DNA from: Elusimicrobiota bacterium
Lineage (GTDB): Bacteria; Elusimicrobiota; Elusimicrobia; UBA1565
Length of the DNA stretch: 21,438 nt
Direction: 5' to 3'
NCBI GenBank assembly: GCA_043819795.1
Contig: JBDREN010000158.1
Coordinates: 1-21,438 of the forward strand
Below are positions 1,393 through 21,438 of the stretch, piece by piece; within the stretch, counting starts at the first letter, position 1; each line of letters starts with the position of its first letter. The position numbers and the translations under genes were made by a program. The notes beneath the pieces are model-generated. The model saw only the letters and a program-made list of their open reading frames with translations. It searched no databases and was not told the DNA's origin.

Positions 1393-1434
1393 CCTCGCCC
1401 CCTGTCCAAGCGCCCCGGCGCCTGAATCCGAGAT

Positions 1435-1464
1435 AGTGTAGGTCCCGAGTCGCTGACTTTTCAA
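1435..1464 (-). promoter_or_regulatory. Putative sigma70-type promoter of the collagen-like gene
   Basis: Minus strand TTGAAA (1459-1464), 18 nt spacer, TACACT (1435-1440), 42 nt upstream of the ATG and preceded by an AT-rich tract (about 1480-1525). Confidence 0.5.
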
Positions 1465-4390: not shown

Positions 4391-5761
4391 TCAGACCATC
4401 CTCAGATTGAACAGAAACTGCGTTCCCTTCCCCGGCTGGGACTTCACGCTGACCTTCCCGCCGTGGGCCTCGACGATCGACTTGACGATGAACAGCCCGA
4501 GGCCGGTCCCCCGGGAGCCCGTCAACCGGGAGTTCGTGTTCTTGCCCTGCTGGAACTTGGAGAAAAGCTTCTTCCTGTCCTCGTCGTCCATCCCGCTGCC
4601 GGTGTCCACGACCGAGACCTCGATGAACTTGCTGCCCTCCTCGCGGTACTGCTCGCCCTGGATCCAGACGTTGCCGCCCTTGGGCGTGAACTTGAGCGAA
4701 TTGGCGATGAGGTTCACGAAGACCTGGCGCAGGCGCTCGGAGTCGCCCTGGACGGGGCCCATCTGCCGGTCCAGGCGGTTGGAGACCGTCACGCCCTGCT
4801 CGCGGCTCTTGGCCTCGAAGAACTGCACGACCTCGCCCGCCACGTTCTGGACCTGGATGGGCTTGAGCGTGCACTCCATCTTCCCGCGCTCGATCTTCGC
4901 CACGTCGAGCAGGTCGCTGATGAAGCCCGAGAGACGCTTCACGTTCGTCTTGATCCGGCCGAAGTACTGCATGAACTGGTCCGGGTTGGTCGGCCGGCCG
5001 CCGACCATCTTGCCCTCCATGAGGTTCAAGAAAGACTCGATCGCGCCCAAAGGCGAGCGCAGCTCGTGCGTCACCGCCGAGATGAAATCCTTCTTCATCA
5101 CGTCCAGCTCCTCGAGCCGCCGCGACATATGGTTGAAGCCGGCCACGAGCTCGCCGACCTCGTCCTTCGACTTCCACTCCAGGCGCACGCCGAGCTTGCC
5201 GCGGCCGATCTCCCCGGCCACTTCGGAGAGGGCCCCGAGCGGGCGGGTGATCTTGCGCGCGAACCAGACCGAGAACAGGATACCGACGAGGAGCGCGATC
5301 CCGAAGAGCCGCATGAGGTCCCGCTGCATACGCGAGACCTCCTCGTCCACCTTGGCCTTGAGGATGCTCTCGTCGATCCCGATGTCGAGGACCACCTGCC
5401 GGCTCTTGTCGGCCGGGTCCACGACCCGAAGCACGCGCGAGCGGACGCTGCCGGTGGTCGCCTTCGCCCCGATATGGTGCGTGCGCGTCCTCTCGCCCGC
5501 GACCCACGTCAGGTTGCAGTAGGTGAGCTCCTCGAACTGGCGCCTGAGGAACTTGACGTAGCTCAAGAGCAGGATGTCGTCGCGCTGCAGAAGGGCGTCG
5601 CTCGCCGCGCGCCGGACCGTGTTCTCGATGATCTGCGTCTTCTCGAGCGTCTCGGCCTTCACGCGCGCCTGCCCCACGCGCACGATGGAGTAGCCGAGCA
5701 TCCCCAACGTGGCCGTGAAGAGCAGCGTCACCGACAGCGTCAGCTTCGTCCGGATGGTCAT
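4391..5761 (-). CDS. Membrane sensor histidine kinase (2 TM, HAMP, HisKA, HATPase_c)
   Basis: Two hydrophobic segments, HAMP (ITRPL...DEVGEL..GFN.M), H-box THELRSPL, N-box QVFVNLIANSLKFT, DTGSG, F-box, GTGLGL. Confidence 0.96.
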   Translation of the reverse strand: MTIRTKLTLSVTLLFTATLGMLGYSIVRVGQARVKAETLEKTQIIENTVRRAASDALLQRDDILLLSYVKFLRRQFEELTYCNLTWVAGERTRTHHIGAKATTGSVRSRVLRVVDPADKSRQVVLDIGIDESILKAKVDEEVSRMQRDLMRLFGIALLVGILFSVWFARKITRPLGALSEVAGEIGRGKLGVRLEWKSKDEVGELVAGFNHMSRRLEELDVMKKDFISAVTHELRSPLGAIESFLNLMEGKMVGGRPTNPDQFMQYFGRIKTNVKRLSGFISDLLDVAKIERGKMECTLKPIQVQNVAGEVVQFFEAKSREQGVTVSNRLDRQMGPVQGDSERLRQVFVNLIANSLKFTPKGGNVWIQGEQYREEGSKFIEVSVVDTGSGMDDEDRKKLFSKFQQGKNTNSRLTGSRGTGLGLFIVKSIVEAHGGKVSVKSQPGKGTQFLFNLRMV

Positions 5762-5813
5762 GCGACCGTCCTATGCTCCGTTCGGCGCAGCGCCCCGCCG
5801 GCAGTCGTCATCG

Positions 5814-7814
5814 TCACTCTCCCCGCAGGATCTCCGCCTGCACGCGGCTGAGCGCCCTCTGGGCCGACCGGTTCTTCGGATCGACCCGCAGTATCCTCTG
5901 GAACATGTTCGCGGCCTCGCTGAGCCTGCCCTGCGCGTAGAGGTCCACGCCCGCCTCGTAGAGGCGCTGGATCTCGACGGGCGCCACGCGCTTGGCCGCC
6001 GGCTGCACGCGCGGCGTGGGGGCCTTCTTCTTGGCCTCGCCCTCCATGAGCTTCACCAGGGCGTCGATATAGCGGCGGAGCGTCTTGCGCTCCTCGGACT
6101 GGCGCGTGTTCCGGTAGGCCAGGCGCAGGTACTTGAGCGCCTGCGGGTTGTCCTTCTTCGCGTAGTAAGAGGTCGCCGTGCGCTTGAGCGCGAGGGCGTT
6201 GCCGGGGTCGACCTCGAGGACTTCCCCGGCGAGTTTGATCACCTTGTCGTAGGCGCCCTCCCGGAGCGCGACGTCCATGAGCGCCATCCGCGCGCCCACG
6301 ATCTTCTCCTTGCCGAGCGTCGGCGCGGGCCTGTCGGCGGGGACGGGGAGCTCTCGCGCGAGCCCCGCCTTCTGCTCGACGGCCTGCAGGAGCTGCTCGA
6401 CCCGCTCGTCGGCGGGCTGCAGACTCTGGGCGTAGGCCAGCTTGCGCACGGCGCTCTTCTCGCGGCCCGCGATCACGTCCATGATGCCCTCGTAGAGCGC
6501 CGCCTGGCCGGGGTCGGTGCGGAAGTTCTCGAGCGCGGGGAAGATGTCGGCCGCCATCGAGACGCTCTCCAGGCTGCCCTGGATGCTGCGGTCCTTCGGG
6601 TTGAGCCCGAGGGCCTGGTGCAGCTTCTGCTTGGCCTCGGCGAACCGGCCCTCGCCGGTGTCCACCCGCGCCTGCCGCAGGAACTCCTGCTGCGCCGTGC
6701 GCTTGTAGAGCGCCAGCTGCTCGGCCTGGGCCCGGAACTCGGGCGTGCCGATATCGGCCAGCTCGCGGATGTTCTCGAGGATGGCCTCCGCGAACTTCGG
6801 CTCGGCCATGAGCGGGCGCCCGAAGCGGAAGCTCAGGCCCATGCGGTGCGTGCCGAAGGTCGAGTTGATCGTCCCGAGCGGGATCGCGAAGCTGTAGTCC
6901 AGCTGCATCCGGTAGATCCGGTAGGAGATGCCCGCCGTGAACTGCCGGTACTCGCGGTCGCCGACGCCCATCGAGCCGCGGACGCCGAAGGTCCCATGCA
7001 GGAGCGTGGGCAGCCATTTCTCGGCGGCGAGGGTCGCGACCCGGTCCGTCGAGCCGTCCGGGGCCTTGAGGAAGCCCAGCTCCCCGGAGAGGCTCGTCCA
7101 CGGCGTCTGGTACGCCGCGCCGAGCTTGACGTTGCGGCCCAGCTTGTCGGTGTCGTTGTCGGAGAAGGCGATGTTCGGCTCGAGCAGGTGCTGGACCATC
7201 AGGCCCGTCGTGAAGCGCGGGCGCGGGCGGTAGAGCAGCCCGAAGTCGAAGTCCATGTTGCTCTTCGAGCCCTTCTGCAAGACCGGGTCGGGCACGCCCA
7301 GCCGCACGGCGCCGGTATCGCTGAAGGAGTTTTCGGCGGCGTCGGTGCTCCCGACCCCGCGGCTCAGGGACTTGAGCGTCGCCCCGACGTACAGGCCGTG
7401 CGGCGCCTGGTCGGGGAATATGCGCCTCCCGTACGACCCGAGGAGGCTCGACTCGCGGTACAGGCCGCTCAAGGTGAAGTAGTTCCAGGCCATTCCGTAC
7501 GCGCCGTGGCGGCCGTGCTGGATCGGCTTTTCGAACGCGATGAACGAATTCTGGAGGTTCGAATTGTCCGAGAGGCCGGTGAAGAGCCTCGAGTACGTCG
7601 TAGCCAGCTGGGGACGGTCCAGCGTCCCCAGGCCCGCCGGGTTGTAATAGACGGCGTAGACGTCGTCCGCGATGGCGGTGAAGGCATTGCCCATCCCCGT
7701 CACGCGGGCGCCGACCCCGACGTCCTCGTACGCCGCGCGCGTTTCCGGAGTGTAGCAAGCCGCGACGAAGAGTGTCAACAGCGCTGAAATCTTCATGTTT
7801 TTGTTAGATTTCAT
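5814..7814 (-). CDS. PorV/PorP-SprF-like outer-membrane beta-barrel fused to C-terminal TPR repeats, 666 aa
   Basis: Start MKSNKNMKISALL (GAGGT upstream) with signal peptide. GARVTGMGNAFTAIADDVYAVYYNPAGL is the PorV/FadL-like N-terminal signature. Amphipathic strands end in HRMGLSFRFG, followed by TPR-like helices (ALGLNP, VLEVDPGN, ILRVDPKNRSA). Confidence 0.82.
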   Translation of the reverse strand: MKSNKNMKISALLTLFVAACYTPETRAAYEDVGVGARVTGMGNAFTAIADDVYAVYYNPAGLGTLDRPQLATTYSRLFTGLSDNSNLQNSFIAFEKPIQHGRHGAYGMAWNYFTLSGLYRESSLLGSYGRRIFPDQAPHGLYVGATLKSLSRGVGSTDAAENSFSDTGAVRLGVPDPVLQKGSKSNMDFDFGLLYRPRPRFTTGLMVQHLLEPNIAFSDNDTDKLGRNVKLGAAYQTPWTSLSGELGFLKAPDGSTDRVATLAAEKWLPTLLHGTFGVRGSMGVGDREYRQFTAGISYRIYRMQLDYSFAIPLGTINSTFGTHRMGLSFRFGRPLMAEPKFAEAILENIRELADIGTPEFRAQAEQLALYKRTAQQEFLRQARVDTGEGRFAEAKQKLHQALGLNPKDRSIQGSLESVSMAADIFPALENFRTDPGQAALYEGIMDVIAGREKSAVRKLAYAQSLQPADERVEQLLQAVEQKAGLARELPVPADRPAPTLGKEKIVGARMALMDVALREGAYDKVIKLAGEVLEVDPGNALALKRTATSYYAKKDNPQALKYLRLAYRNTRQSEERKTLRRYIDALVKLMEGEAKKKAPTPRVQPAAKRVAPVEIQRLYEAGVDLYAQGRLSEAANMFQRILRVDPKNRSAQRALSRVQAEILRGE

Positions 7815-7819
7815 GGCTA

Positions 7820-8293
7820 TCACCTCACCACCAGCACTGTGCCGGTAACGACGACGTCCTCGGACTTGATCTGGTAGATGTAGACCCCGCCCGAGACCGG
7901 CGTTCCGTTGGAGCGCCCGTCCCAGGTGAGGGCCTCCGTGTTCGGTACCCCCGGCGGCGCGGGCGGGCACTGCGCGATGATCGCCGCTGCGTCCGTGTGG
8001 GCCATGCCGGAGACTTGGTGCCCGCGCAGGTCGAAGACGTCGCCGCTCACCCCCGAGAACCTCGGATTGTCGAAGCACACGATCGCGAGGTCGTTGGCCC
8101 TGTCGCCGTTGGGCGTGATCACGCGCACGAGCGCGCCCAGGAAGTGGAACCCCGCGCCCGCCTGCGCGTTCAGATGCCCCGTCCCCAAAACGGCCCCCAA
8201 GAGCGCCGCCGCGGCGGCCCACAGCGCGACCCACACCTTGCGCCGGGTCCCGCGCTCTGCGAAATTTATGCGAATTTTATTAAGCTTTTTCAT
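7820..8293 (-). CDS. Exported protein consisting only of a T9SS type-B-like (gliding-motility-associated/FlgD-Ig-like) C-terminal domain
   Basis: AAAGGAG RBS and a hydrophobic signal/TM segment. RVITPNGDRAND...VFDLRG...WDGRSNG..VSGGVYIYQI...GTVLVVR is closely similar to the C-terminus of the upstream giant protein. Confidence 0.85.
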   Translation of the reverse strand: MKKLNKIRINFAERGTRRKVWVALWAAAAALLGAVLGTGHLNAQAGAGFHFLGALVRVITPNGDRANDLAIVCFDNPRFSGVSGDVFDLRGHQVSGMAHTDAAAIIAQCPPAPPGVPNTEALTWDGRSNGTPVSGGVYIYQIKSEDVVVTGTVLVVR

Positions 8294-8316
8294 GCCCGCT
8301 CTCCTTTATATAGTCA

Positions 8317-11300
8317 TCACCTGGCCACCACGATGGTGCCGTTGAACGTCTTGCCCTCGCCCTTGATCTGGTAGATGTACACGCCGCTCGTCACGACCGT
8401 GCCGTTCATGCGGCCGTCCCACTGCAAAGTGTCGGGCTGTGGCCCGGCGGTCATGGGCGCCACGTACGCGCCGCGCAGGTCGTAGACCTTGCCTTCGACC
8501 GCCGACCCGGCGGGATTGTCGAACAGGAAGATTACCGCGTCGTTCTTGTTGTCGTTGTTCGGCGTGATCACCCGGGTCGTGATGTTCGAAAGGTCGAAGG
8601 TCACGCCCGCGTCCCGCAGTTGGCTCCGGATCTGGAACTTGCCGATGTTCGGCGTCTTGACCGTCAGCGTCTGCTCGGTCTTGTCGATCTTGCCGTAAAG
8701 CTTCTTGTACTCCTTGCCGTTGTTCCAGAACATGCCCAGGTGCGAGGTCTTGCCGTTGGCCTCTTGGGTCCGCATCGTGCCCCGCTGGGCGCGGGCCTGC
8801 TCCAGGCTGTAGGTCCGGGTCTGCGGGACCGGCTGGCCGTTCGCGTCGGTCACGAAGTGCACCTGAATGGACACCGGCTCGGGGAATGCGAAGCTCTTGA
8901 GCTCCTCGCGGCCGCCGAGCATCGGGATGAACTCGATCGCCTGCATGACCTTGCCGCCCGTATCGTCCGGCACGCGCCGGCCGTGGATCAGGATGTCCTC
9001 GTCATAGCCGCTGGTCTCCTGGTTGATCGCGGCGACCGCCTTGGCATCGAGCACGACCTGCGTGACCTCGTCATCGAGGACGATCTGCTGCTGGCCCAGG
9101 GTGGTCACGTAGAGGGTCGCGGTGGAGAAGCCCAGCTGGTTGAACGACCGGACCCGGTAGCGGTACGCCTGGCCGTTGGTGAAGTCGGTGAAGCTGCTCA
9201 CGCCCACGTCCACGGCGCCCCGCAGCGTGAAGCCGGCCCGCGGGTTGGTCGTCCGCGAGATGGTGTAGCCCAAGAGCTCGTCCGCGGTCGGGGTCTTGGT
9301 GCTCACGAAGCGCGTGCCGTCCGCGAACTGCGTGGTCGGCGACCAGCGCACCGTGATGTTCCCGCCTCCGTTGCTCACCTTGAGCCCGAAGACCTCCTGC
9401 GGGACGATCGCGTAGGGCGCCACGCCGATCGAGGCCGAGGGCGCGCTCTCGTTGCCGCCCTTGTCGCGGGCCGCCACGCGGAAGTAGTAGGTCGTGAAGG
9501 CCTTGAGCGGCCTGTCGGTGTAGGACACGCCGGTCGTGGTGGTGACCGTCACGAAGCTCGCGTTGTCGGTCGAGCGCTCCAGGCGGTAGTGGCTGAAGTC
9601 CAGGCCCTTGCCGCCCAGGCCCTCGGGCAGCGCGTTCCAACTGAGCTGCGCCCGGACGAGTCCGGAGACCGCGCTCAGGCCGGTGGGCGTGGCCGGCGCC
9701 TTGTTGCGCGGCAGGGAGAAGGCCTGCTGGCGCGGCGCGGCCGGGTCCGCGCCGAGGTCCACGAATGAGGTCTCGCCCAGCGCGTCGATCGAGCGCACCG
9801 CGAAGTAGAAGGTGGTGAGCGGGTTCAGGCCGCCCACCGTCAGGGTCTCGAGCTGGCCGGGAGCCTTGGCCGGGCTCAGGACCCGCTGGCTCGAGGCCGC
9901 CAGGCTGAACCAGGCCGTGGCGTCGTTGCCCAGCGCGGCCACCGACACGGTCGCGAAGCGCACCTCGTAGCGGGCGATCGGGATGAGGTTCTTGTTCTCC
10001 GGGGCCGTCCACTGGAGCGCGACGTCGCCCTCGGCCGCGCCCTTGAGCGCGGTCAGGTCCGTGATCTGCTCGGGCAGGTTCGGGAAGAAGCTCGCGGCCG
10101 CGTAGTTGTTCACGTTCAGGTTGAGAGCGACGCTCCGCAGCCAGGTCCCGACGTTCGCGACCGGGGCCGAGGAGTCGATGATGCGGATGGCGAAGTAGTA
10201 GGTCGTGAACGGCGTCAGGCCGGTGACGCGCAGGGCCTCGGCCGTCCCGCCCGCCGCCACCGACGGCGCCTGCGACTTACTGAACGCCGACAGAGGCTGG
10301 GCGGCGTTGAAGGCCGCGTCGTCGCCGATGTTGCCGGCCGAGGACATCCGGATCTCGTAGCGCTCGGGCGGGACCGTGCCGGCGCGCAGGGGGGCCGTCC
10401 AGGTCAGGTCGATGGCGCCGGCGCCGCCGTTGGTCACGGCCACGAGGTCCGCCACGCGCGCCACGCCGTTGGCCCGGGCGCCGGCCTGGACGCCCGGCCG
10501 GGCCGGGTCGGCGCCGTCGTCGATCGGCGAGGCCTCGCTCACCGCGTCGTAGGACCGGACCGCGAAGTAGTAGAGCTCGCCGGTCGCCAGGCCGGTGACG
10601 GTCAGCGTTTCGCGGCCGCCGGGCTGCTTGGCCGGGGCCACGACCCGCAGGCCCGCCGCCGCGTTGAACCAGGCCGTCGTGTCGCCGCCGAGCTCGAGCA
10701 CGGAGAAGGTGGCGAAGCGGACCGTGTAGCTCGAGATCGGCACGAAGTTCCGGTTGCGCGGCGCGGTCCAGCTCAGGTCCACCTCGCCCGCCGCCGCGCC
10801 GGTCTGGGCCGTGAGGTCGGTGACCGGGTCGGGCAGCCTGGCCTCGAAGCTGGCGATCGCCGAGTTGTCCACGTTGAGGCCCAGGGCCACGCTGCGCTGC
10901 CATACGCCGGCGTTGGCCACCGGCGCCGAGGAGTCCTCGACCTTGATCGCGAAGTAGTACCGCGTGAACGGCACCAGGCCCTCGACCGTGAGGGTCTCCA
11001 CCGCGCCGCCCGCGCCGACCGCCGGCGCCGCCGTGATGCTCAGCGCGGTCAACGGCAGGGCCGAGGCGAAGGCGGCCTCATCCGCGAAGTTGGCCGCCGA
11101 CGAGATCTTGATCACGTAGCGTTCGGGCAGGGCCGCGCCGGCGCGGTGAGGGGACGTCCAGGTCAGGTCGACCGCGCCGGAGGCGCCGTTGGTCTGCGCC
11201 CTCAGGTCGGTCACGGGCGCCACGCCGGTCGCCCGGGCTTCGGCCTGCGCGCCCGCCTTGGCGGGCTCGGCGCCGTCGTCGATGGGCGAGACGTCGCCCA

Positions 11301-14300
11301 CCGCGTCGAAGGACTTGACGCCGAAGTAGTAGAGGACGCCGGGCTGGAGCCCGCTCACGGTCAGGGTCTCGACGCGGCCGGGCTCGCGGGCCGTGGGCAG
11401 ATGCCGCTCGTTGGCCGCCGCGAGGTTGAACCAGGCCGTGGCGTCGCCGCCCAGCTCGAGCACGGAGAACGTCGCGAACCGGACGGTGTAGCTCGAGATG
11501 GGCACGAAGTTCTGGTTGCGCGGCGCGGTCCAGCTCAGGTCCACCATGCCCGCCAGAGGCCCGGGCTGCGCCGTCACGCCGGTGATCGGATCCGGGATCT
11601 CGCTGACGAAGCTCGGCAGCGCCCAGTTGCCGATGTTGAAGTCGAGGGCGACGCTGCGCAGCCAGCTCCCGGCGTTGGCCAGCGGCGCCGAGGAGTCCTC
11701 CACCCGGATCGCGAAGTAATAGGTGGTGAACGGCGTGGAGAGGCCGGTGACGCACATCGCCGCCGTGGAGCCGCCCACGCCGACCGCCGGCACCGGCGAG
11801 AGGCTCAGCGCGGAGAGCGGCAGGGCCGCGTCGAAGCCCGCGTCATCGGCGATGTTGCCGAGAGTGGAGACCCGGACCGTGTAGGACTCGGGCAGCGTGG
11901 TGGCGGCGCGGTACGGGGCCGTCCAGGCCAGGTCGATGGCGCCCGAGCCGCCGTTCGTCGCGGCCGCGAGGTCCGTGATCCGGGCCACGCCCGTGGCCCG
12001 GGCCCCGGCCTGCGCGCCCGCCCTGAGCGGATCGGAGCCGTCGTCGATGGACGAGGTCTCGCCGATCGCGTCGGCCGACTTCACCGCGAAGTAGTAAAGC
12101 TCGCCGGCCTCGAGGCCGCTGACCGTCAGGGTCTCCACGCCGCCGGGCTCGCGGGCCGGGGCCTGGACGCGCTCGCTCGAGGCCGTGGCCGTGAACCACG
12201 CCGTGGTGTCGCCGCCAAGGTCGGCCACCGAGAAGGTGGCGAAGCGCACCGTGTAGGTCGAGACCGGCACGAAGTTCCGGTTGCGCGGCGCGGTCCAGGT
12301 CAGGTCCACCATGCCCGCCAGAGGCCCGGCCTGCGCCGCCAGGTCGGTGATGGGGTCGGGCAGGTTCGCCTGGAAGCCCGGCACCGCGTCGTTCCCTATA
12401 TTGAAGTTGAGGGCCGCGCTGCGCAGCCAGCTCCCGGTGTTCGCCAGCGGCGCCGAGGAGTCCGCGACCCGCATGGCGAAGTAGTGGGTCGTGAAGGGCG
12501 CCAGGCCGGTGATGGTCACGGACTCGGCCGCGCCGCCCGCGGCCACAACCGGCGGGACCGTCCCGCTGAAGGCGCTCAGCGGCCGGGCCGCGGCGAAGGC
12601 CGCGTCGTCGGCGATGTTGCCGAGCGTGGACACCCTGATCTCGTAGCTCTCGGGCAATACCGTGGCGGCGCGGTAAGGGGCCGTCCAGTTCAGGTCTACC
12701 GAGCCGGAAGTCCCGGCCGCCTGCGCGGCCAGGTCGGTGATCCGCGCCGCGCCGGCGGCCCGGGCCTCGGCCTGGACGCCCGCCTTGGCCGGATCGGCGC
12801 CGTCGTCGATGGGCGAGGTCTCGCCGATCGCGTCGGCCGACTTCACCGCGAAGTAGTAGAACTCGCCGGCCTCGAGGCCGCTGATGGTCAGGGTCTCCCG
12901 ATAGCCGGGCTCGAGCGCCGTGCTCAGCACGCGCTCGCTGGAGGCCGTTGCCGAGAACCAGGCCGTGGTGTCGCCGCCGAGGTCGGTCACGGAGAACGTC
13001 GCGAACCGGACGGTGTAGCTCGAGATGGGCACGTAGTTCCGGTTGCGCGGCGCGGTCCACGACAGGTCCGCCATCCCCGCCAGAGACCCGGTCTGGGCCG
13101 TCAGGTCGGTGACCGGGTCCGGCGGCTTGGGCTGGAAGCTCGGCAGCGCCCAGTTGCTCACGTTCAATCCCAGGGCCGCGCTCCGCGTCCACACGCCCGC
13201 CTTCCTCACCGGCGCCGAGGAGTCCTCCACCCGGACCGCGAAGTAGTGGGTCGTGAAGGGCACCAGGCCGGTGATGGTCACGGACTCGGCCGCGCCGCCC
13301 GCGGCCACGGCCGGCAGGTCCGTCCCGCTGAACGCGGAGAGCGGCTCGGCCGCGGCGAAGGCCGCGTCGTCGGCGATGTTGCCCAGCGTGGACACCTTGA
13401 TCACGTAGGTCTCGGGGAGAACGGTTCCCGCACGTCGCGGGGACGTCCAAGTAAGGTCGATGGCGCCCGAGCCGCCGTTGGTGAGCGCGACGAGGTCGGT
13501 GACGGGGATGATGCCGTTGGCCCGGGCGCGGGCCTGGTCGTCGAGCTTGGCCGGATCGGCCTTGTCGTCGATGGCCGAGACCTCGCTGATCGAGTCGTAG
13601 GACTTGAGCGCGAAGTAGTAGAGCACGCCGGGCTCCAGGCCCGTGACGGTCAGGGTCTCGAGTCCGCCGGGCTCCAGGGCCGGGGCCACGACCACCGAGC
13701 TCGAAGCCGCGTTGAACCAGGCCGTGGTGTCGCCGCCCAGCTCGCTCACCGGGAAGGTGGCGAAGCGGACCGTGTAGCTGGAGACCGGCACGAAGTTCAG
13801 GTTGCGCGGCGCGGTCCAGGCCAGCTCGATGGCGCCCGCAGCGTCGCCGGTGAGCGCGGTCAGGTCGCTGACCGGCTCGGGCGCCCGCGGCGTGAAGGCC
13901 GGGGCCGTCCAGTTGCCCGCGTTGAAGCCGAAGGCCACGTCGCGGCTCCACACGCCCGCCTTCGGCGCCGGCGCGCCGGAGTCCTCGGCGCGGATGGCGA
14001 AGTAGTAGGTGGTGAACGGCGCCAGGCCGGTGACGGTCAGGGTCTCGGCCGCGCCGCCCGCGGCCACGGCCGGCAGAGGCGTCCGGCTGAACGCGGAGAG
14101 CGGCTCGGCCGCGGCGAAGTCCGCGTCGTCCGCGATGTTGCCCGCGGAGGAGGCCTTGATCACGTAGCTCTCGGGCAAAACGATTCCAGCGCGTTGCGGG
14201 GACGTCCAGGTGAGGTCCACCGAGCCGGAGGCGGCGCCGGCCTGCGCGGCCAGGTCCGTGACCGGGATGACGCCGTTGGCCCGGGCCCGGGCCTGGTCCA

Positions 14301-17300
14301 CGACGCCGGCGGCCCGCTCGTCGATCGGCGAGACCTCGCTCACCGCGTCGGTGGACTTGACCGCGAAGTAGTAGAGCACGCCGGGCTCCAGGCCCGTGAC
14401 CGTCAGGGTCTCGAGGTCGCCGGGCTCCAGCGCCGGGGCCACGACCACCGAGCTGGAGGCCGCGTTGAACCAGGCCGTGGTGTCGCCGCCCAGCTCGCCC
14501 ACCGAGAAGGTGGCGAAGCGGACCGTGTAGGTCGCGATGTCCACGAAGTTCTGGTTGCGCGGCGCGGTCCAGGCCAGCTCGATGACGCCCTCGGCCGACC
14601 CGGTCAGGGCGGTCAGGTCGCTCACCGGATCGGGCGGGTTCGGCTGGAACTGCGACGGCGAGGAGTTGTTCACGTTCAGGCCCTGGCCCACGTCCCGCAG
14701 CCAGCGGCCGATCAAGCCCGAAGAGTCCTCGGCGCGGACCGCGAAGTAGTAGGTCTTGAAGGGCACCAGCCCGGTCACGGTCAGGCTGACGGGGACTCCG
14801 CCGGTTCCGACGGCCGGGATCGAGGTGTCGCTGAACGCGTCCAGGGTCTGGGCCGCGTCGAAGGCCGCGTCGTCCGCGATGTTGCCGGTCGTGGACATCT
14901 TGATCACGTAGCCCTCCGGCGGGGTGACGCCGGCGCGGAACGGAGCGGTCCAGGTAAGGTCGATGTCGCCCGGAGCCGAGCCGGCTTGCGCGACCAGGGC
15001 GGTGACGCTCTCGATGCCCTTGGCGTTCGCCCGGACCTGCACGCCGCCCGCCTGGGTGTCGATCGGGCTGGCCTCGCCGGCCCGGTCCTCGGACTTGACC
15101 GCGAAGTAGAACCGGCCGCCGGAAGCCAGGCCGGTCAGGATCAGGCTCTCCTTGGAGCCCGGATCACGGATCTGGGTGACGGCGGCGGAGGAGGCCGCGG
15201 CGAACCAGACGGCCGTGTCGCCGCCCATGTCCACGACCGAGAAGGTGGCGTAGCCCACGTCGTAGCGCACGATCGGCGTGAAGTTCGCGTTCTTCGGCGC
15301 GGTCCAGGCCAGGCCGATCTCGCCCTCCGCGCCGCCCGTGAGCGCGGTCAGGTCCGTGATCGCGTTGGGCAGGTTCGGCACGTGCAGCGGCGCGGTGGAG
15401 TTGTACACGTTGACGTTCTGCCCCACGTTGCGCCGCCACTCGCTGACCTCCGGCGGGGTCTTGGAGTCGAGCTCGCGGATCGCGAAGTAGTAGGTCACGG
15501 TCGGCGTCAGGCCGTTGACCACGAAGGAGCGCGCCCCGCCGCTTCCGGGCGTGGGGAGGGTGGACGGGCTGAACGCGCTCAGAGGCTGGGCCGCGTCGAA
15601 GTCCGCGTCGTTCTCGATGTTGGCGGCGCTCGACACCCTGATGTCGTAGGACAGCGGCGGCGCGAGCCCGATATTCTGGGGCTCGGTCCACTCGAGCCGG
15701 ACGCTGGCGATCGTGTCGCCCGTGTTGGCGACCAGGTTCTGGATGGGCGGGATCGGCTTGGGCCGCGACCGGACCTGGTTGATCACGCTGGCCGCCTGGA
15801 GGTCCTCGGCGGAGACCGCGCCCGTGATGTCCACGGACTTGACCGCGGCGTAGTACGTCAGGGCGCCGTTGAGCCCGGGGACGACCAGCGTCACGAAGGC
15901 GCCCGGGGCCTCCGCGGCCGGAGCCATGGTCGTCGAGTCGGCCAGGCTGAACCAGTTGCCGAGCTGCTCCTCGGGGCTGCCGCCCGGCATGTCGGAGACG
16001 CTCTTGGTGTTGACCTTGACCAGGTAGTGGTCGATGGGCACCCCATTGGTGTTCTCCGGGGCGGTCCATCTGAGCTCCAGGTCGCCCACGAGCCATCCCT
16101 GCAGGGCCGTAAGGTCCAGGATGCGCTCGGGGTCGCGCAGCTCGAAGTAGGCGGTGGCGTAGGCCTGGCCGGGCGGCACGAGGGGGTCCGCCGGCTCGTC
16201 TATCGGCGAGATCTCTCCGGTCCGGTCTATGGACTTGATTCCTACATAGTAGACCATGCCGGGCACCAGGCCGGTGACCGTCACGGTCTCGAGGCTGCCG
16301 GGCTCCAGCGCCGGGTAAGCGACGCGGGATGTCGAGACGGCCGCGTTGAACCAGGCCGTGGAGTCGCCTCCCAGCTCGGCCACCGAGAAGCTGGCGAGGC
16401 GGATGTCGTAGCCGTTGATCGGCACGAAGTTCTCGTTGCGCGGGGCCGTCCACGCCAGGTCGATCGTCCCCGGCAAGGAGCCGATCAGCGCGGTGAGATC
16501 GGTGATCGCGTTCGGCGGGCCGGGCGCGAAGGCCGCGGCCGCGAAGTTGCCGGCGTTCAGGCCCCTGCCCGCGTCGCGCTGCCAGAGGCCCGCCCGCGCG
16601 CTCGGCAGGGAGGAATCCTCGACCCGGATGGCGAAGTAGTAGGTCACGCTCGGGATCAGGTCGATGACGGTCAGGCCCTCGATGGCGCCGCCCGCGGCCA
16701 CGGGCGGGACCGACGTGGCAGGGCTGAAGACGCTGAGGTCCTGGGCGGCCTCGAACTCGGCGTCGTCGCTTATGTTGGTGAAAGACGATGCCTTGATCAC
16801 GTAGCGAAGCGGCGGCGTGAGCGCGCCGGTGCGCAGCGGCGAGGTCCAGGACAGGCTGACGGCGGCGTCCTGGAAGGCGTGGGTCGCCGCCACGAGGTTC
16901 GTGACCGGGGCGATGCCTTCCGGCACCGCGAAGTTGGACTCGTTGACGCCGGTCTCCACGACCCACCGGCCCTCGAACCGCGGCGCGCCGGAGTCCACGG
17001 CGCGGACCGCGAAGTAGTAGGTGACGCTGGAGGCCAGGCCCGTGATGGCAAGGGACTCGGCCGCATCCTGGCCGCCCACGACCGGGACCGGCGAGCCGGA
17101 GAAGATCGTCAGAGGCTCGGCGGCCTCGAAGGCGGCGTTGTCCGCGATCTGGCCGCTCGTGGAGGCCCGCACCTCGTAAGAGAGCGGCGCCGTTTCGCTC
17201 TGGCGCCTCGGGGTGGTCCACGCGAGGTCGATCTCGCCGTCCTGAGCGCCGGCCTGGGCCGCGAGGTCCGTGATCCCGGCGATGCCGGCCGCAAACTCCC

Positions 17301-20082
17301 TGTCCTGCTGGCCCGGCTGGCCGGGATCGGCCTTGGTGTCGACGGGCGAGGTCAAGCCCGCGTCGTCGGTGCTCTTGACGGCGAAGTAGTAGAGCAGCGT
17401 GGGCTCGAGGCCGGTGATGGTCAAAGTCTCCGGGCTGCCCGGAGGCAGGGCCTGGGCCAGCACGCGCTGGCTCGAGGCCGTGGCCGTCCACCAGGCCTCG
17501 GCGTCCCCGCCGGACCCGGTGACCGAGAAGGTGGCGAAGCGCACCGTGTAGCTGGAGATGGCCGCGAAGTTCTGGTTGCGCGGGGCCGTCCAGCTCAGGT
17601 CGATCTCGCCCTCGCCCGAGCCCGGCAGGGAGGTGAGGTCGGTGATCGCCTCCGGCAGCGAGAGCACGAAGAACGGCGTGGTGGAGTTGTTCACGTTGAA
17701 GAGCGCGTCCACCGTCCAGGCCCCGAAGAGGCCCGCGCTGTCCTCGACCCGGACCGCGAAGTAATGGGTGGCCGCCGGGTTGAGCTCGCTGAGCGTGACG
17801 ATCACCCGCTCGCCGCCCGCGCCCAGGGCGGGGGCCGTCGTGGCGCTGAACGCGGAGAGCGGCTGGGCCGCGTCGAACTCGGCGTCGCCCGTGATGTTCG
17901 CGGTCGTGGAGACCTTGATCACGTAGGCCTCGGGCAAAGTCGCGGCGGCCCGGTACGGCGCGGTCCACTCGAGCTCGATGTCGCCCGCGCTCGAGCCCTG
18001 GCGCGCCGCCAGGTCGGTCACTCCCTCGATGCCCCTGGGCCGCGCCCGGACCTGCGCGCCTCCGGCCTGGGTGTCCAGCGGGCTGACCTCCTCGGCGCGG
18101 TCGATGGACCGGACGGCGATGAAGTAGAGCCTGCCGGGCTCGAGGCCGGTCAGGGTCAAGGTCTCCAAGGAGCCGGGATCGCGCGCCTGGCCCAGGCCGC
18201 TGGAGTAGGCCACGTTGAACCAGGCCATGGTGTCTCCGCCCAGGTCGGCCACGGAGAAGGTGGCGAAGCCGACTTCGTAGCGGTCTATGGGAGCGAAGTT
18301 CAGGTTGCGCGGCGCGGTCCAGGCCAGGTCGAGCTCGCCCTCGGCCGAGCCGGTCAGGGCCGTCAAGTCCGTGACCGGTTCGGGATCGTTGGGGATCAGC
18401 TTCGGCAAGGCGAAGTTCGTGGTGTTCTTGTTGAGCGCCGGATTGCGGTCCCACGCGCTCACGTCCGGAGGATCGTTGGAGTCCTGATGCCGGATGGCGA
18501 AGTAGTATTTCACGGTCGGGATCAGGCCCGACACCGTGAAGGTTCTCGCCCCGCCGCTTCCGTGCGCGGGCAGCGAGGAGCTGGTGAAGGCCGTCAGCGG
18601 CAGGGCGGCCCCGAAGTCCGCGTCGTTCTCGATGTTCGAAACCGTCGACGCGCGGAATTCATAGCTCAACGGCAGCACCAGGTTCGCGTCCGAGGGCTCG
18701 GTCCACTCGAGCTTGATGCTGGCGATCTGCGCGCCGGTGGTCGCCGTCAGATTGGATATGGCCGGGATCGGCCGCGGCCGCGACTTGGCCTGGGTCAGCA
18801 CGCCGGCCGCCTGGTCGTCGACGTCCGAGACCCGGTCGGTGACGTCCACGGACCGGACCGCCACGTAGTAGCTCAAGGCGCCGTTGAGCCCGGGGACCTC
18901 GACCGTCACGTCCGTGCCCGGGGTCCGGCCGGACACCACCACCTCGGTGGAGTCCGCCAGGTCGAACCAGGCGTAGGGGTCGAAGCCGGTGTCCACGATG
19001 GTCCGGGTGTTGATCTTCACGATATAGCGGTCGATGGGCACGCCGTTCTGGTTGGCCGGCGCGGTCCACGTCAGCCTGAGCGCGCTCACCTCGGTCCCCC
19101 GCAGGGCCGAGAGGTTGGTGACCGGGTCCGGATCGCCCGGCTCGTACAGCGCCTGGGCGAAGTTCGTGGCGTTGAGGCCGAGGGCCGCGTTCCGCTCCCA
19201 GGTCCCGTCCATCCCGAAGCCGAAGGAATCGCTGGCCCGCGCCGCGAAGTAGTACGTCACGCCCGGGGTCAGGCCCGCCACGTTCATCGATTCCAAGGTT
19301 CCGGACGAGCCCACGACCGGCGGAGCCGAGACCGTGAAGGCCGTCAGCGGCTTGGCCGCGTCGAAGTCCGCGTCGCTCGCGATCTGGCCGGTCGAGGAGA
19401 CCCGGATCACGTAGGCCGTATTGGGCTCGCTATTCCCGATCCGGTTCGGGGCGGTCCAGGCGAGGTCCACTTCGCCGACCGACACGCCGGTCGCGCCGAT
19501 GAGGTCCGTGATCCCGGCGATGCCTTTGACATCCACGTACGCCTGGTTGCTCACCGACCTGGCGTTGTCGTCCAGGTCGGAGGTATTGCCGTTGTCGTCG
19601 GTGCTCTTGAGCCCGAAGTAGTACCTGATCGCGGGATCGAGCTCGGTCAGGATGCTCTGCGGGTTTCCGGGCGCCAGCGCGGGCGGCGGCCCCGTAAACA
19701 GCGTCGCCGCCTGGAACCAGGCGGTGGTGTCCCCGCCCAGGTCGGATATGCTGAACGTCGCGTAGCGGACCGTATAGGACGACACCGCCAGGGTGCTCGG
19801 CTCCAGGAGCCCCATGTCCTCTATGGGAGCGGTCCACTGCAGGTAGACCTGCCGCTCGAGCCCGCTCGGGATGCCCACCAGGTCCGCGACCGGGACCGGC
19901 GGGAAGGAGTCCCTGATCCGGATCGTGAAGGTGACGCTGTCGCCGTTGTTGGACGGATCGGCGTTGGCGATGGCAAAGCGGGCGAGCGCGGCGCCCGCGG
20001 CGGCCAACAGGCCGCCCAGGGCCAGCGCTTTGAGCGCCGCCGTCCACGTGCCGTAGCGTTTCACGACCTTATCGAGACTCAT
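8317..20082 (-). CDS. Giant secreted multi-fibronectin-type-III-like repeat protein with T9SS type-B-like CTD, 3921 aa
   Basis: Signal peptide ending AIA. 27 repeats with P.PVTDL...L.WT(A/S/E/T)P...Y...GL.P...YYFA(V/I) plus two further FN3-like domains, then an unrelated beta domain and the CTD TPNNDNKND...YDLRG...WDG...SGVYIYQI...GTIVVAR. Uninterrupted 11.8-kb frame. Confidence 0.93.
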   Translation of the reverse strand: MSLDKVVKRYGTWTAALKALALGGLLAAAGAALARFAIANADPSNNGDSVTFTIRIRDSFPPVPVADLVGIPSGLERQVYLQWTAPIEDMGLLEPSTLAVSSYTVRYATFSISDLGGDTTAWFQAATLFTGPPPALAPGNPQSILTELDPAIRYYFGLKSTDDNGNTSDLDDNARSVSNQAYVDVKGIAGITDLIGATGVSVGEVDLAWTAPNRIGNSEPNTAYVIRVSSTGQIASDADFDAAKPLTAFTVSAPPVVGSSGTLESMNVAGLTPGVTYYFAARASDSFGFGMDGTWERNAALGLNATNFAQALYEPGDPDPVTNLSALRGTEVSALRLTWTAPANQNGVPIDRYIVKINTRTIVDTGFDPYAWFDLADSTEVVVSGRTPGTDVTVEVPGLNGALSYYVAVRSVDVTDRVSDVDDQAAGVLTQAKSRPRPIPAISNLTATTGAQIASIKLEWTEPSDANLVLPLSYEFRASTVSNIENDADFGAALPLTAFTSSSLPAHGSGGARTFTVSGLIPTVKYYFAIRHQDSNDPPDVSAWDRNPALNKNTTNFALPKLIPNDPEPVTDLTALTGSAEGELDLAWTAPRNLNFAPIDRYEVGFATFSVADLGGDTMAWFNVAYSSGLGQARDPGSLETLTLTGLEPGRLYFIAVRSIDRAEEVSPLDTQAGGAQVRARPRGIEGVTDLAARQGSSAGDIELEWTAPYRAAATLPEAYVIKVSTTANITGDAEFDAAQPLSAFSATTAPALGAGGERVIVTLSELNPAATHYFAVRVEDSAGLFGAWTVDALFNVNNSTTPFFVLSLPEAITDLTSLPGSGEGEIDLSWTAPRNQNFAAISSYTVRFATFSVTGSGGDAEAWWTATASSQRVLAQALPPGSPETLTITGLEPTLLYYFAVKSTDDAGLTSPVDTKADPGQPGQQDREFAAGIAGITDLAAQAGAQDGEIDLAWTTPRRQSETAPLSYEVRASTSGQIADNAAFEAAEPLTIFSGSPVPVVGGQDAAESLAITGLASSVTYYFAVRAVDSGAPRFEGRWVVETGVNESNFAVPEGIAPVTNLVAATHAFQDAAVSLSWTSPLRTGALTPPLRYVIKASSFTNISDDAEFEAAQDLSVFSPATSVPPVAAGGAIEGLTVIDLIPSVTYYFAIRVEDSSLPSARAGLWQRDAGRGLNAGNFAAAAFAPGPPNAITDLTALIGSLPGTIDLAWTAPRNENFVPINGYDIRLASFSVAELGGDSTAWFNAAVSTSRVAYPALEPGSLETVTVTGLVPGMVYYVGIKSIDRTGEISPIDEPADPLVPPGQAYATAYFELRDPERILDLTALQGWLVGDLELRWTAPENTNGVPIDHYLVKVNTKSVSDMPGGSPEEQLGNWFSLADSTTMAPAAEAPGAFVTLVVPGLNGALTYYAAVKSVDITGAVSAEDLQAASVINQVRSRPKPIPPIQNLVANTGDTIASVRLEWTEPQNIGLAPPLSYDIRVSSAANIENDADFDAAQPLSAFSPSTLPTPGSGGARSFVVNGLTPTVTYYFAIRELDSKTPPEVSEWRRNVGQNVNVYNSTAPLHVPNLPNAITDLTALTGGAEGEIGLAWTAPKNANFTPIVRYDVGYATFSVVDMGGDTAVWFAAASSAAVTQIRDPGSKESLILTGLASGGRFYFAVKSEDRAGEASPIDTQAGGVQVRANAKGIESVTALVAQAGSAPGDIDLTWTAPFRAGVTPPEGYVIKMSTTGNIADDAAFDAAQTLDAFSDTSIPAVGTGGVPVSLTVTGLVPFKTYYFAVRAEDSSGLIGRWLRDVGQGLNVNNSSPSQFQPNPPDPVSDLTALTGSAEGVIELAWTAPRNQNFVDIATYTVRFATFSVGELGGDTTAWFNAASSSVVVAPALEPGDLETLTVTGLEPGVLYYFAVKSTDAVSEVSPIDERAAGVVDQARARANGVIPVTDLAAQAGAASGSVDLTWTSPQRAGIVLPESYVIKASSAGNIADDADFAAAEPLSAFSRTPLPAVAAGGAAETLTVTGLAPFTTYYFAIRAEDSGAPAPKAGVWSRDVAFGFNAGNWTAPAFTPRAPEPVSDLTALTGDAAGAIELAWTAPRNLNFVPVSSYTVRFATFPVSELGGDTTAWFNAASSSVVVAPALEPGGLETLTVTGLEPGVLYYFALKSYDSISEVSAIDDKADPAKLDDQARARANGIIPVTDLVALTNGGSGAIDLTWTSPRRAGTVLPETYVIKVSTLGNIADDAAFAAAEPLSAFSGTDLPAVAAGGAAESVTITGLVPFTTHYFAVRVEDSSAPVRKAGVWTRSAALGLNVSNWALPSFQPKPPDPVTDLTAQTGSLAGMADLSWTAPRNRNYVPISSYTVRFATFSVTDLGGDTTAWFSATASSERVLSTALEPGYRETLTISGLEAGEFYYFAVKSADAIGETSPIDDGADPAKAGVQAEARAAGAARITDLAAQAAGTSGSVDLNWTAPYRAATVLPESYEIRVSTLGNIADDAAFAAARPLSAFSGTVPPVVAAGGAAESVTITGLAPFTTHYFAMRVADSSAPLANTGSWLRSAALNFNIGNDAVPGFQANLPDPITDLAAQAGPLAGMVDLTWTAPRNRNFVPVSTYTVRFATFSVADLGGDTTAWFTATASSERVQAPAREPGGVETLTVSGLEAGELYYFAVKSADAIGETSSIDDGSDPLRAGAQAGARATGVARITDLAAATNGGSGAIDLAWTAPYRAATTLPESYTVRVSTLGNIADDAGFDAALPLSALSLSPVPAVGVGGSTAAMCVTGLSTPFTTYYFAIRVEDSSAPLANAGSWLRSVALDFNIGNWALPSFVSEIPDPITGVTAQPGPLAGMVDLSWTAPRNQNFVPISSYTVRFATFSVLELGGDATAWFNLAAANERHLPTAREPGRVETLTVSGLQPGVLYYFGVKSFDAVGDVSPIDDGAEPAKAGAQAEARATGVAPVTDLRAQTNGASGAVDLTWTSPHRAGAALPERYVIKISSAANFADEAAFASALPLTALSITAAPAVGAGGAVETLTVEGLVPFTRYYFAIKVEDSSAPVANAGVWQRSVALGLNVDNSAIASFEARLPDPVTDLTAQTGAAAGEVDLSWTAPRNRNFVPISSYTVRFATFSVLELGGDTTAWFNAAAGLRVVAPAKQPGGRETLTVTGLATGELYYFAVRSYDAVSEASPIDDGADPARPGVQAGARANGVARVADLVAVTNGGAGAIDLTWTAPLRAGTVPPERYEIRMSSAGNIGDDAAFNAAQPLSAFSKSQAPSVAAGGTAEALRVTGLTPFTTYYFAIRIIDSSAPVANVGTWLRSVALNLNVNNYAAASFFPNLPEQITDLTALKGAAEGDVALQWTAPENKNLIPIARYEVRFATVSVAALGNDATAWFSLAASSQRVLSPAKAPGQLETLTVGGLNPLTTFYFAVRSIDALGETSFVDLGADPAAPRQQAFSLPRNKAPATPTGLSAVSGLVRAQLSWNALPEGLGGKGLDFSHYRLERSTDNASFVTVTTTTGVSYTDRPLKAFTTYYFRVAARDKGGNESAPSASIGVAPYAIVPQEVFGLKVSNGGGNITVRWSPTTQFADGTRFVSTKTPTADELLGYTISRTTNPRAGFTLRGAVDVGVSSFTDFTNGQAYRYRVRSFNQLGFSTATLYVTTLGQQQIVLDDEVTQVVLDAKAVAAINQETSGYDEDILIHGRRVPDDTGGKVMQAIEFIPMLGGREELKSFAFPEPVSIQVHFVTDANGQPVPQTRTYSLEQARAQRGTMRTQEANGKTSHLGMFWNNGKEYKKLYGKIDKTEQTLTVKTPNIGKFQIRSQLRDAGVTFDLSNITTRVITPNNDNKNDAVIFLFDNPAGSAVEGKVYDLRGAYVAPMTAGPQPDTLQWDGRMNGTVVTSGVYIYQIKGEGKTFNGTIVVAR
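9710..19900 (-). repeat. Tandem array of alternating A-type and B-type FN3-like repeats (~750-765 bp per A+B pair); boundaries approximate
   Basis: 14 A repeats (RFATFSV..LGGDTTAWF) and 13 B repeats (GNIADDAAF.AA.PLSAFS), counted from the WTxP motifs. Confidence 0.9.
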
Positions 20083-20189
20083 TCTCCGTCAACCCTTCAC
20101 GAACCCTCCGGGTACGGTCTCCGGATACGGCTCATCCTCCTTCTCCGTCGTTTCACGCGTGCTCGCCTGCGTCACGGAGCGGACCCGGG

Positions 20190-20327
20190 TCCCTCCCCGG
20201 GGGGATATCCTCCCCCCGGGAAAGGGACAAGGCCGCAGGGGCTCGATGTCAGCCCGCGCTGTTCTCACGCGCCCCTCGCTTCATGACGCTCTTCGTCGGC
20301 GGACATATCGTCCTCCGCCACACCCCC
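20190..20327 (-). repeat. Conserved structured intergenic element, copy A (3' of the pilin-like gene)
   Basis: Shares ordered blocks with 21292-21432: CCCGGGGGGA/TCCCCCCGGGAAAG hairpin, CAAGGCC(G/A)CAGGGGCTC, TCTCACGCGCCCCTCG..TCATGACGCTCT and GGCGGAC. Confidence 0.85.
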
Positions 20328-20963
20328 TTACGACGCGTCCGCCGCCGTCAGGGTGAATGTCACGTTCTGGTCCGACGCCGTGCTCGTCCAGTTCGGCAGC
20401 CGGAAGAACAGCCACATATGCACCTGGTCGTTCGGCGCCTTGTTGTCCATATCTACCGTATCCGTCTGCCACTCGTACTTCGTGCCGTCTCCGCTATTGC
20501 TGCCCGCACGCTGCGTGCCGCTGATGTAGCTCGCCGCGGCCGTTACGTCCGCGAAGTCGGCCGCGCCCGGAGCCGCGGAGGTCCACGGCGTATCGCCGAA
20601 GAGTACGTACGCGGCCAGCTTGTCCGTCTCGCCGCTCGTCTGGTCCGTCGTCGGTGACGCGTCGAACGTCCAGGGGGTGCCCCCCGACGTGATGGCGCCG
20701 GTCAGGTCCAGTTCCTGGCCCGAGAGCGTGCCCAGGATCGTCACCGTCGCGGGCGACACGGTCTGCGTGGACGCGTACAGGTCCAGCGATCCCAAGTTCA
20801 ACACCACGGTCGCCGTGTCGATCTCGACCCCGCGGTCGATATTCGGCGTGATCGTGATGATGACCTGATCCGTGTCGTTGGTCAGATTAGCGTCCGCCCA
20901 CACGTTGCCCGCGTATCCCAACATCAGCCCCATCAGGGCTATCGCTGCCCACGTCTTCTTCAT
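20328..20963 (-). CDS. Secreted beta-rich protein, putative pilin/fibre subunit (TasA-like pattern), 211 aa
   Basis: AGGAGG 7 nt before MKKTWAAIALMGLMLGYAGNVWA (signal peptide). The mature part is Thr/Asp-rich with alternating-hydrophobic strands and ends MWLFFRLP...DQNVTFTLTA. The coding call is strong; the pilin function is inference. Confidence 0.8.
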   Translation of the reverse strand: MKKTWAAIALMGLMLGYAGNVWADANLTNDTDQVIITITPNIDRGVEIDTATVVLNLGSLDLYASTQTVSPATVTILGTLSGQELDLTGAITSGGTPWTFDASPTTDQTSGETDKLAAYVLFGDTPWTSAAPGAADFADVTAAASYISGTQRAGSNSGDGTKYEWQTDTVDMDNKAPNDQVHMWLFFRLPNWTSTASDQNVTFTLTAADAS

Positions 20964-20984
20964 GGCCTTGCCTCCTTTCCCGGG
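20963..20984. promoter_or_regulatory. RBS region of the pilin-like gene, forming an inverted repeat with 21318-21339 (21/22) and, less perfectly, with 20215-20234
   Basis: Plus strand TGGCCTTGCCTCCTTTCCCGGG versus reverse complement of 21318-21339, TGGCCTTGCCTGCTTTCCCGGG. Confidence 0.85.
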
Positions 20985-21291
20985 ATTCCCCGGTTTGTCT
21001 GTTCCGCCGGCTTTCGCCGGCGCGTTCGTCCTCGTGCCGGCCGGGGTAGTCCCCGCGCCGGCTCGCTTCACCGTCATATCCTTCACGCCGGCCTTGACCG
21101 GCTCGTTCTCTGTGCGCCTGGTCAGGTTATCGCCCATACCGTTCCCTCCGAGTCATGTCCGTCCCGCCGCGCGGCCTCACCGCGCCGCCGGCGCATCGCA
21201 TCGTCAAATCGGTCATATCACCCGCATCTCATCATCCGTCCGCGCCTCCGTCCCGGGGCATTCCGCCCCGCCGGTCCCCGCGAGCCCGCGC

Positions 21292-21432
21292 CCCTTTCCC
21301 GGGGGGAACCGAATCCCCCCGGGAAAGCAGGCAAGGCCACAGGGGCTCAGGCAGAAAGCACATCGCTCTCACGCGCCCCTCGTCTCATGACGCTCTCCTC
21401 TGGCGGACCCATCGAGCCACCGGTCCACCGCC
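21292..21432 (-). repeat. Conserved structured intergenic element, copy B (3' of the upstream gene, 5' of the pilin-like gene)
   Basis: Same blocks as copy A, with a perfect 13-bp stem TTTCCCGGGGGGA (21295-21307) / TCCCCCCGGGAAA (21314-21326). Confidence 0.85.
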
Positions 21433-21438
21433 TTACGA
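21433..21438 (-). CDS. Probable 3' end (Ser-stop) of an upstream gene cut by the window edge
   Basis: TCG TAA on the minus strand sits at the same position relative to element B as the TCG TAA ending the pilin-like gene sits relative to element A. Only 6 nt are visible. Confidence 0.4.
   Translation of the reverse strand, partial: S

Follow-up and report, generated by a model that had tools for sequence, protein, structure and literature searches.

Few natural long-range interactions with an RBS have been described in bacteria, three of which are cited in PMC12697547; according to the accessible part of that report, distant anti-SD 12-mers still reduce protein by 44% at more than 500 nt. In Staphylococcus aureus, a motif in the icaR 3' UTR pairs with the SD region of its own mRNA, which keeps ribosomes from loading and at the same time forms a substrate for RNase III (PMC3868564); the pairing is poorly conserved among relatives (PMC7821165). 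The highly expressed hbs mRNA of Bacillus subtilis forms a long-range UTR duplex of 14 bp, AU-rich and with an energy of -19 kcal/mol, which modulates, and limits, cleavage at an RNase Y site of the 5' UTR (PMC5737220). In the maturation-gene switch of the Levivirus MS2 the anti-SD strand, located upstream in the 5' UTR of the phage RNA, is first held in a competing hairpin, leaving a time window for translation before the long-distance interaction closes the RBS (PMC4615214). OppZ and CarZ are 3' UTR sequences complementary to a translation start in their own operon; they need release by RNase E as well as Hfq and act in trans (PMC7398697). All of these descriptions follow the accessible portions of the cited papers.

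The element analysed here would, as far as its sequence goes, be a UTR-to-UTR pairing of the icaR and hbs kind, with as new properties that it is longer, hairpin-gated and repeated per paralogue. Based on the same portions of those papers, the following comparison can be made. As in icaR, the anti-RBS motif lies in the gene's own 3' UTR; the icaR motif, however, measures 7 nt whereas the pairing here spans 20-23 bp over the upstream flank, SD, spacer and AUG, a hairpin masks half of it, and each paralogue in an array of structural genes has its own copy of the unit. The difference with hbs is that the RBS itself is targeted, with duplex energies of about -43 to -49 kcal/mol. The competing hairpin is shared with MS2, but the strand is found downstream of the stop of a chromosomal gene. 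In contrast to OppZ and CarZ there is neither an Hfq match nor a terminator. In the titles and opening lines of abstracts, mostly outside subscription papers, neither the element nor the Elusimicrobiota pilin family was found described. The case combines length, a competing-hairpin gate and natural co-variation, and the genes involved are predicted to encode pilins in an uncultured phylum. Its small size would allow it to be rebuilt in a reporter, and the question it raises is whether a 3' UTR can function as a timer, both for its own mRNA and across the paralogues of an operon.

The window, i.e. the whole stretch of 21,438 nt that was analysed, is the entire contig C158 of genome G000 (4.99 Mb, 66.8% GC, 90.3% complete). 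The source is an uncultured groundwater bacterium, presumably of the Elusimicrobiota. Gene Z is the last pilin gene of a tandem array; its product likely carries a signal peptide and the start Met is unchanged across 20 aligned relatives. Pfam gives no match for the gene Z pilin or for the chaperone-like gene of the locus, a PDB sequence search with the gene Z product returned nothing meaningful, and no PF00577 (usher) match is present in the 90.3%-complete genome. The AF2 model (pLDDT 77.8) yields as top Foldseek matches a TasA fibre (E 3.3e-4) and the CS20 pilus (E 3.5e-4), both with TM 0.3-0.4, and VIA gives scores up to Z 6.3 (TLP-1b), which is moderate and under the tool's caution line of Z 8. 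In the ESM Atlas the pilin falls in unnamed clusters, in which WxL (12% of members) and SCPU (19%) are leads only, below 0.9. The label 'pilin', given earlier from the letters, is thus backed by fold comparisons, and it appears a fair working label because the model is closest to TasA fibres and chaperone-usher pilins. Like the donor-strand-exchange pilins (TasA, chaperone-usher CS20/FimG, TLP-1), the protein is predicted to have an incomplete beta-sandwich and an extended N-terminal strand; it differs from them in the missing Pfam, PDB and usher matches and in the PorP/SprF-like and CHU_C-like proteins of its locus. The 3921-aa Fn3 protein next to gene Z has a pilin-like N-terminal strand and a weak CHU_C match at its C-terminus; by inspection, its start region shows no complementarity to element A. 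Coordinates of all features are collected in Table 1.

Table 1. Features of the gene Z region and the evidence on which each is based (positions in the window).
Feature	Position	Strand	Basis
Fn3-repeat protein, 3921 aa, downstream of gene Z	8317..20082	-	ORF, Pfam
Element A, 3' UTR of gene Z	20184..20327	-	sequence comparison, folding
Hairpin 2 of A, 15 bp, no U tract	20191..20225	-	folding
Anti-RBS strand of A, about 94 nt past the stop	20215..20234	-	duplex and folding
Gene Z, 211-aa protein, predicted donor-strand-exchange pilin	20328..20963	-	ORF
RBS target: SD, spacer, AUG	20961..20984	-	sequence comparison with C185
5-bp hairpin immediately 5' of SD; 3' arm belongs to target	20980..20993	-	folding
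Leader between B and gene Z RBS, 333 nt	20985..21317	-	sequence scan
Element B, 3' UTR of upstream paralogue	21285..21432	-	direct repeat of A; X2 contig joint
Hairpin 2 of B, 14 bp, no U tract	21294..21327	-	folding
Anti-RBS strand of B, 21/22, G-U pairs extend over AUG	21318..21341	-	duplex
Last codon and TAA stop of upstream paralogue, contig end	21433..21438	-	same six letters as gene Z end

The locus (C59:1-1869, C185 and window 4391-20963) resembles that of a donor-strand pilus without an usher match. It also holds a minor pilin, a chaperone-like gene, major pilins, a PorP/SprF-like barrel with TPRs and a histidine kinase, while C59 contains an Fn3 protein with a pilin-like terminal domain (weak HMM match, E 0.026). 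The pilin family is present in 42 of the 393 class genomes. Elsewhere in the window (649-1470, minus strand) a collagen-repeat protein with a likely signal peptide is encoded; judged from ORF translations, its gene sits between two tRNA-like sequences, near 230-300 and 1900-1970.

The complementarity between the RBS and its flanks, on which the initial annotation was built, is confirmed and lies well above chance in the window. The RBS 22-mer at 20963-20984 (minus strand) is complementary to element B at 21318-21339 in 21 of 22 positions, with one mismatch, and its pairing with element A consists of 20 core pairs, one bulged A and one internal G-U. Duplex energies amount to -48.7 kcal/mol for RBS:B and -43.0 kcal/mol for RBS:A. 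With up to 3 mismatches allowed, the 22-mer has two matches in the window against 0 in each of 100 dinucleotide shuffles, and in the 4.99 Mb genome it occurs at three places: the gene Z RBS, element B and the RBS of the paralogue on C185. Both elements pair with both known RBSs at -40 to -48.5 kcal/mol, and in all five strong pairings the duplex of the mRNA strand is stronger than that of the opposite strand, by 1.9-5.0 kcal/mol. Ranked by raw energy among the 3807 candidate start/own-UTR pairs of the genome (66.8% GC), the A duplex comes only 10th; nonetheless it stands out in the compact-duplex and shuffle tests. A genome-wide ungapped own-UTR search, based on 2427 ORFs from a crude caller, gave a best match of 17/20 over 3807 candidate starts against 18/20 over 11414 non-cognate pairs, and consequently no second case was found in the genome; this ungapped measure misses the bulged A, and the gene of element B is unassembled.

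The hairpins that were annotated in A and B exist, and their 5' arms take in the 3' half of the anti-RBS strand. Both elements show the same order: hairpin 1 (20297-20320 in A, 21402-21429 in B), anti-RBS and hairpin 2. In A, the 5' half of the anti-RBS is a toehold and the 3' half a hairpin arm. The picture of two flanking elements is only partly retained. The RBS is inverted relative to both, but rather than flanking sites A and B are the direct-repeat 3' UTRs of tandem paralogues. They align by blastn with 74.5% identity over 157 nt (E 4e-16), each begins directly after an identical last codon and stop, and the anti-RBS starts 92-95 nt past that stop. In a contig of run X2, positions 21400-21438 are joined to a paralogous gene about 82% identical to gene Z. 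It is because of this joint, the shared stop and the direct repeat of A that B is assigned to the upstream paralogue. Contig C185 terminates within a paralogue, of which it holds the first 31 codons, with 20 nt before the ATG identical to those of gene Z; this paralogue is preceded by the chaperone-like gene and a more distant family member. Where C185 departs from gene Z, the X2 gene shares 10 of the 10 listed letters, and it departs from both at a minimum of 7 further sites among those listed. In a contig of run X1 a B-type UTR with 2 differences over 171 nt precedes a different leader. Together this indicates that the array probably has three or more units. Tandem arrays are frequent in the pilin family, with for example 7 matches on a single G007 contig.

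Neither a sigma-70-like promoter nor a minus-strand terminator was found in 20050-21438, leader included, nor was there a terminator-like minus-strand site between RBS and anti-RBS. Rfam gave 9 matches at E up to 10, all far under the gathering scores. Element B was also considered as a mobile repeat; this was rejected, as the 393 class genomes give only chance-level matches of 19-35 nt outside G000. Mini-ORFs of 13 and 11 codons are seen in B and A (21347-21388 and 20249-20284, minus strand); they have a conserved ATG start in common and stop shortly 5' of the anti-RBS.

The alternating orientation had been read, as one of three alternatives, as a sign of fimS- or shufflon-like recombination sites that invert the leader or the gene. 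Such a role would fit the inverted RBS, the 21/22 arms around 333 nt and the 20 tyrosine-recombinase matches over the cut-off elsewhere in the genome. Nearby, however, no recombinase match was found. None was seen in the window before, profile searches of the whole of C158 agree, and C185 and C59 (which overlaps C185 by 141 nt) likewise lack a match to PF00589, PF00239 or PF02371 (tyrosine, serine, IS110/Piv); the search covered assembled contigs, and at least part of one pilin unit lies in the stretch left unassembled. Of 59 loci, 34 with two or more family genes and many of these overlapping, 0 carry such genes on both strands. Contigs of four runs contain no strand-changing joints, though no contig spans the leader and rare variants are dropped in assembly; the two joints that were observed both go back on the same strand, as expected from a tandem array. 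Moreover, the leader lacks a promoter-like site, and the arms are imperfect and lineage-specific. We regard inversion as very improbable.

The same low standing applies to a second early suggestion, that RNase III cuts the stem and releases translatable single-gene mRNAs. The enzyme is encoded in the genome, and the arms in A and at the RBS do flank the coding sequence. Cleavage would nevertheless remove the SD and possibly the AUG because the 5' arm of the stem is the RBS itself, with SD, spacer and AUG included. Excision of monocistronic subunit mRNAs would therefore be highly unlikely.

An independent comparison comes from L051, a 1684-bp unbinned contig with 60% GC. Its pilin has 49% protein identity to gene Z and is also the last one before a protein resembling the giant Fn3 protein. 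The L051 3' UTR complements its own, different RBS at 21 of 23 positions, beginning about 10 nt past the stop. A hand count over 21 ATG-anchored positions shows that the RBSs of window and L051 differ at 7, of which 4 are two-sided changes, 1 gives a G-U and 2 are unmatched in the L051 UTR. Consequences of exchanging partners are pronounced: the L051 RBS reaches -39.0 kcal/mol with its own UTR against -25.7 with B, and the window RBS -39.6 with B against -26.5 with the L051 UTR, so that a swap loses 13 kcal/mol. Both lineages have a small RBS hairpin (5-6 bp), which also folds in the C185 paralogue, a free toehold and a masking UTR hairpin. Beyond the pairing block and hairpin only scattered matches of 10-17 nt are left between the two. 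The initial annotation asked for compensatory changes in upstream paralogues; L051, a relative, provides changes of this kind. Specificity by compensatory change is thereby indicated, from natural changes only and in two lineages. In the L051 upstream paralogue the first 200 nt past the stop do not match the RBS. The upstream intergenic region (L051:131-410) has an SD and ATG directly after the stop and a 10-nt complement of SD and ATG before a hairpin, with a second copy past the hairpin; possibly the same design is here aimed at a mini-ORF.

Could the complementarity be a by-product, in which an inverted RBS copy arose by template switching or by recombination of DNA arms and only the local hairpin is selected? 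This would agree with the patchy occurrence and with the decayed look of A; furthermore, the CCUCC core is lost from both A and B, and the hairpin 3' arms resemble the RBS. A and B combined show about 4 departures from the perfect complement; by our estimate, neutral decay at 25% divergence would not clearly have produced more. Neutral drift being compatible with this decay, the argument for selection depends on L051, which is one short contig. Against the by-product stands that it requires two independent events, each copying a lineage's own RBS into an equivalent location, or else long maintenance with 4 two-sided changes. The distance between the proteins of window and L051 is about 1.2 changes per column (summed over a quick tree). 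We consider this explanation improbable.

To assess the distribution of the design, family genes were taken from overlapping genome samples (61, 393, 401, 17 and 393), 10 metagenome loci and 3 titled loci; their starts were called automatically and some are wrong. The shuffle test comprised 59 genes with start, stop and UTR, duplicates and close paralogues included, at 100 shuffles each. L051 (z -7.5) and gene Z (z -7.4) were reached by 0 of 100 shuffles, one further gene (G001 gene 30) scored z -4.0, and 56 of the 59 were at or above -2.0, the null level. In the compact-duplex test, with 59 SD-bearing RBSs against 76 UTRs, z values were -11.0 for L051 with its own UTR, -9.9 for RBS:B and -7.7 for RBS:A, the best of 4332 cross-genome cells being -4.5. 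Another 28 pairs from 35 new genes included none that was convincing. The design is thus patchy: clear in 2 of 59 family genes and weak in two more lineages. The weak leads are the UTR of G001 gene 29, with a helix of 12-13 bp before the hairpin (z -3.4/-3.7, equalled by 0.3-0.5% of cross pairs), and L060, with 10 bp before the hairpin (z -3.3); about 0.3-0.6% of cross pairs attain that level, and in 2 of 3 pairings of these cases the opposite strand pairs better. Two candidates were dropped: in G001 gene 30 the site lies 134 nt past the stop and the compact test gives z -1.7, and L164 (z -4.1) rests on a TTG start without SD that is probably mis-called.

In the quick tree, window and L051 fall in one clade of 27 rows with support 95. 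The full element is absent from the other clade members with DNA context (L052, L053, L055 and two G001 genes), and viral contigs contain no relatives and no pattern match. In the sister loci L034, L053 (two), L055 and, in similar form, L118 a different conserved 3' UTR hairpin replaces the anti-RBS. In L034, L053 and L055 it has a repeated TTCGC-type core, possibly a protein-binding site, and similar repeats are also found upstream of the first operon gene on C185. For 35 of 40 homologues the longest contig measures about 0.8-3.2 kb, which fits assembly breaking at repeated array units; such pilin arrays are probably under-represented in genomes.

Folding gives a less uniform picture than the duplex comparisons. 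The two pairings of the anti-RBS strand had been called mutually exclusive. This holds for the full duplex but not for a partial duplex of 9-12 bp, which in several folds coexists with both hairpins. This toehold duplex lies over the SD end, spacer and AUG, and the two pairings thus exclude each other only by half. In MFE structures RBS-UTR pairing appears in 4/4 L051 constructs and 4/7 constructs of Z with A. Local hairpins only are predicted for the 1289-nt span and for 3/7 Z+A constructs, those with leaders from 21140 or beyond; a partial or extended duplex is found in 3/7 Z+A and 2/6 B+Z constructs, and the full duplex in the Z+A construct without the hairpin 3' arm and in all four of L051. 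When A lacks that arm, freeing the RBS costs 20.4 kcal/mol, compared to 3.7-5.5 without the element. The energetic penalty for an enforced full duplex is +2.2 to +6.3 kcal/mol in the window and +0.8 in L051. Long constructs often fail to form the RBS-UTR pair. Folds of long GC-rich RNA are unreliable, and at best they describe a poised switch.

The design, together with the co-changed letters in a distant relative, suggests that the mRNA, once complete, likely folds onto itself and silences its translation. Specifically, the anti-RBS of 20-22 nt in the 3' UTR of each array pilin would fold back on the RBS of its own mRNA, limit translation and hasten decay, a reading to which we assign roughly an even chance. 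The long-range translational switch proposed initially is supported to this extent, except that the conserved partner, as seen in L051, is the gene's own downstream 3' UTR. Gene Z would be translated freely during transcription, because the anti-RBS emerges about 730 nt after the RBS. The UTR hairpin would then trap the 3' half of the anti-RBS, leaving a toehold of 9-12 nt which, as long as the RBS is unoccupied, may pair over the SD end, spacer and AUG. Once the hairpin 3' arm is lost or opened (by trimming, cleavage or pausing), the full duplex of 21-23 bp could form, block initiation and perhaps become a substrate for RNase III; genes for RNase III and RNase E/G are both present in G000. 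Each transcript would give a burst of limited output that depends on ongoing translation. That a structural protein which is likely abundant should be repressed is counter-intuitive and counts against the cis fold-back. A variant in which terminating ribosomes melt the duplex was set aside as a lead only: the anti-RBS of L051 lies about 10 nt past the stop, those of A and B 92-95 nt, and the only reading frames that end near the latter two are unconserved mini-ORFs.

Pairing in trans was weighed as well. Excision of the UTR might yield a small, stable RNA with all pilin RBSs as targets, which would provide negative feedback as OppZ and CarZ do. A complementarity of 21-22 nt is strong enough without a chaperone, A as well as B can pair with either of the known RBSs, the genome encodes RNase E/G and RNase III, and the hairpins could protect the fragment. 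On the other hand, a U-tract intrinsic terminator at the 3' end is typical of Hfq sRNAs, whereas past the UTR hairpins no U tract or terminator is present, and Hfq (PF17209) has no match in the 90.3%-complete genome. This makes a trans-acting RNA unlikely in our judgement. Slightly less credence goes to a protective fold-back that closes both ends of a processed pilin mRNA and stabilises it, for which hbs offers a precedent in the accessible part of PMC5737220. Pairing is predicted mainly in short-leader constructs, which resemble processed units, and strong UTR hairpins also follow pilin genes without an anti-RBS, e.g. in G055; yet a closed mRNA would be untranslatable because the duplex covers SD and AUG.

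If the cis fold-back applies, B may also act on the RBS of the next gene, 333 nt downstream, because the paralogues share their RBS. Taken further, the array could form a natural toehold strand-displacement circuit, with a shared RBS and a hairpin-gated anti-RBS in each 3' UTR, which we put forward as a rather doubtful extension. Each polycistronic mRNA would then close a different subset of starts (own, next or nested), and subunit ratios or one-subunit-at-a-time expression would be set by RNA, with neither a protein regulator nor DNA inversion involved. Upstream of the pilin start, an in-frame ATG that has an SD-like sequence opens a leader reading into this start (20964-21137, minus strand). 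This open in-frame leader is found in gene Z and the C185 paralogue and was not seen in L051; P0002 has a similar N-terminal extension, of which the final six residues are identical. Ribosomes initiating at the upstream leader ATG could strip the RBS duplex.
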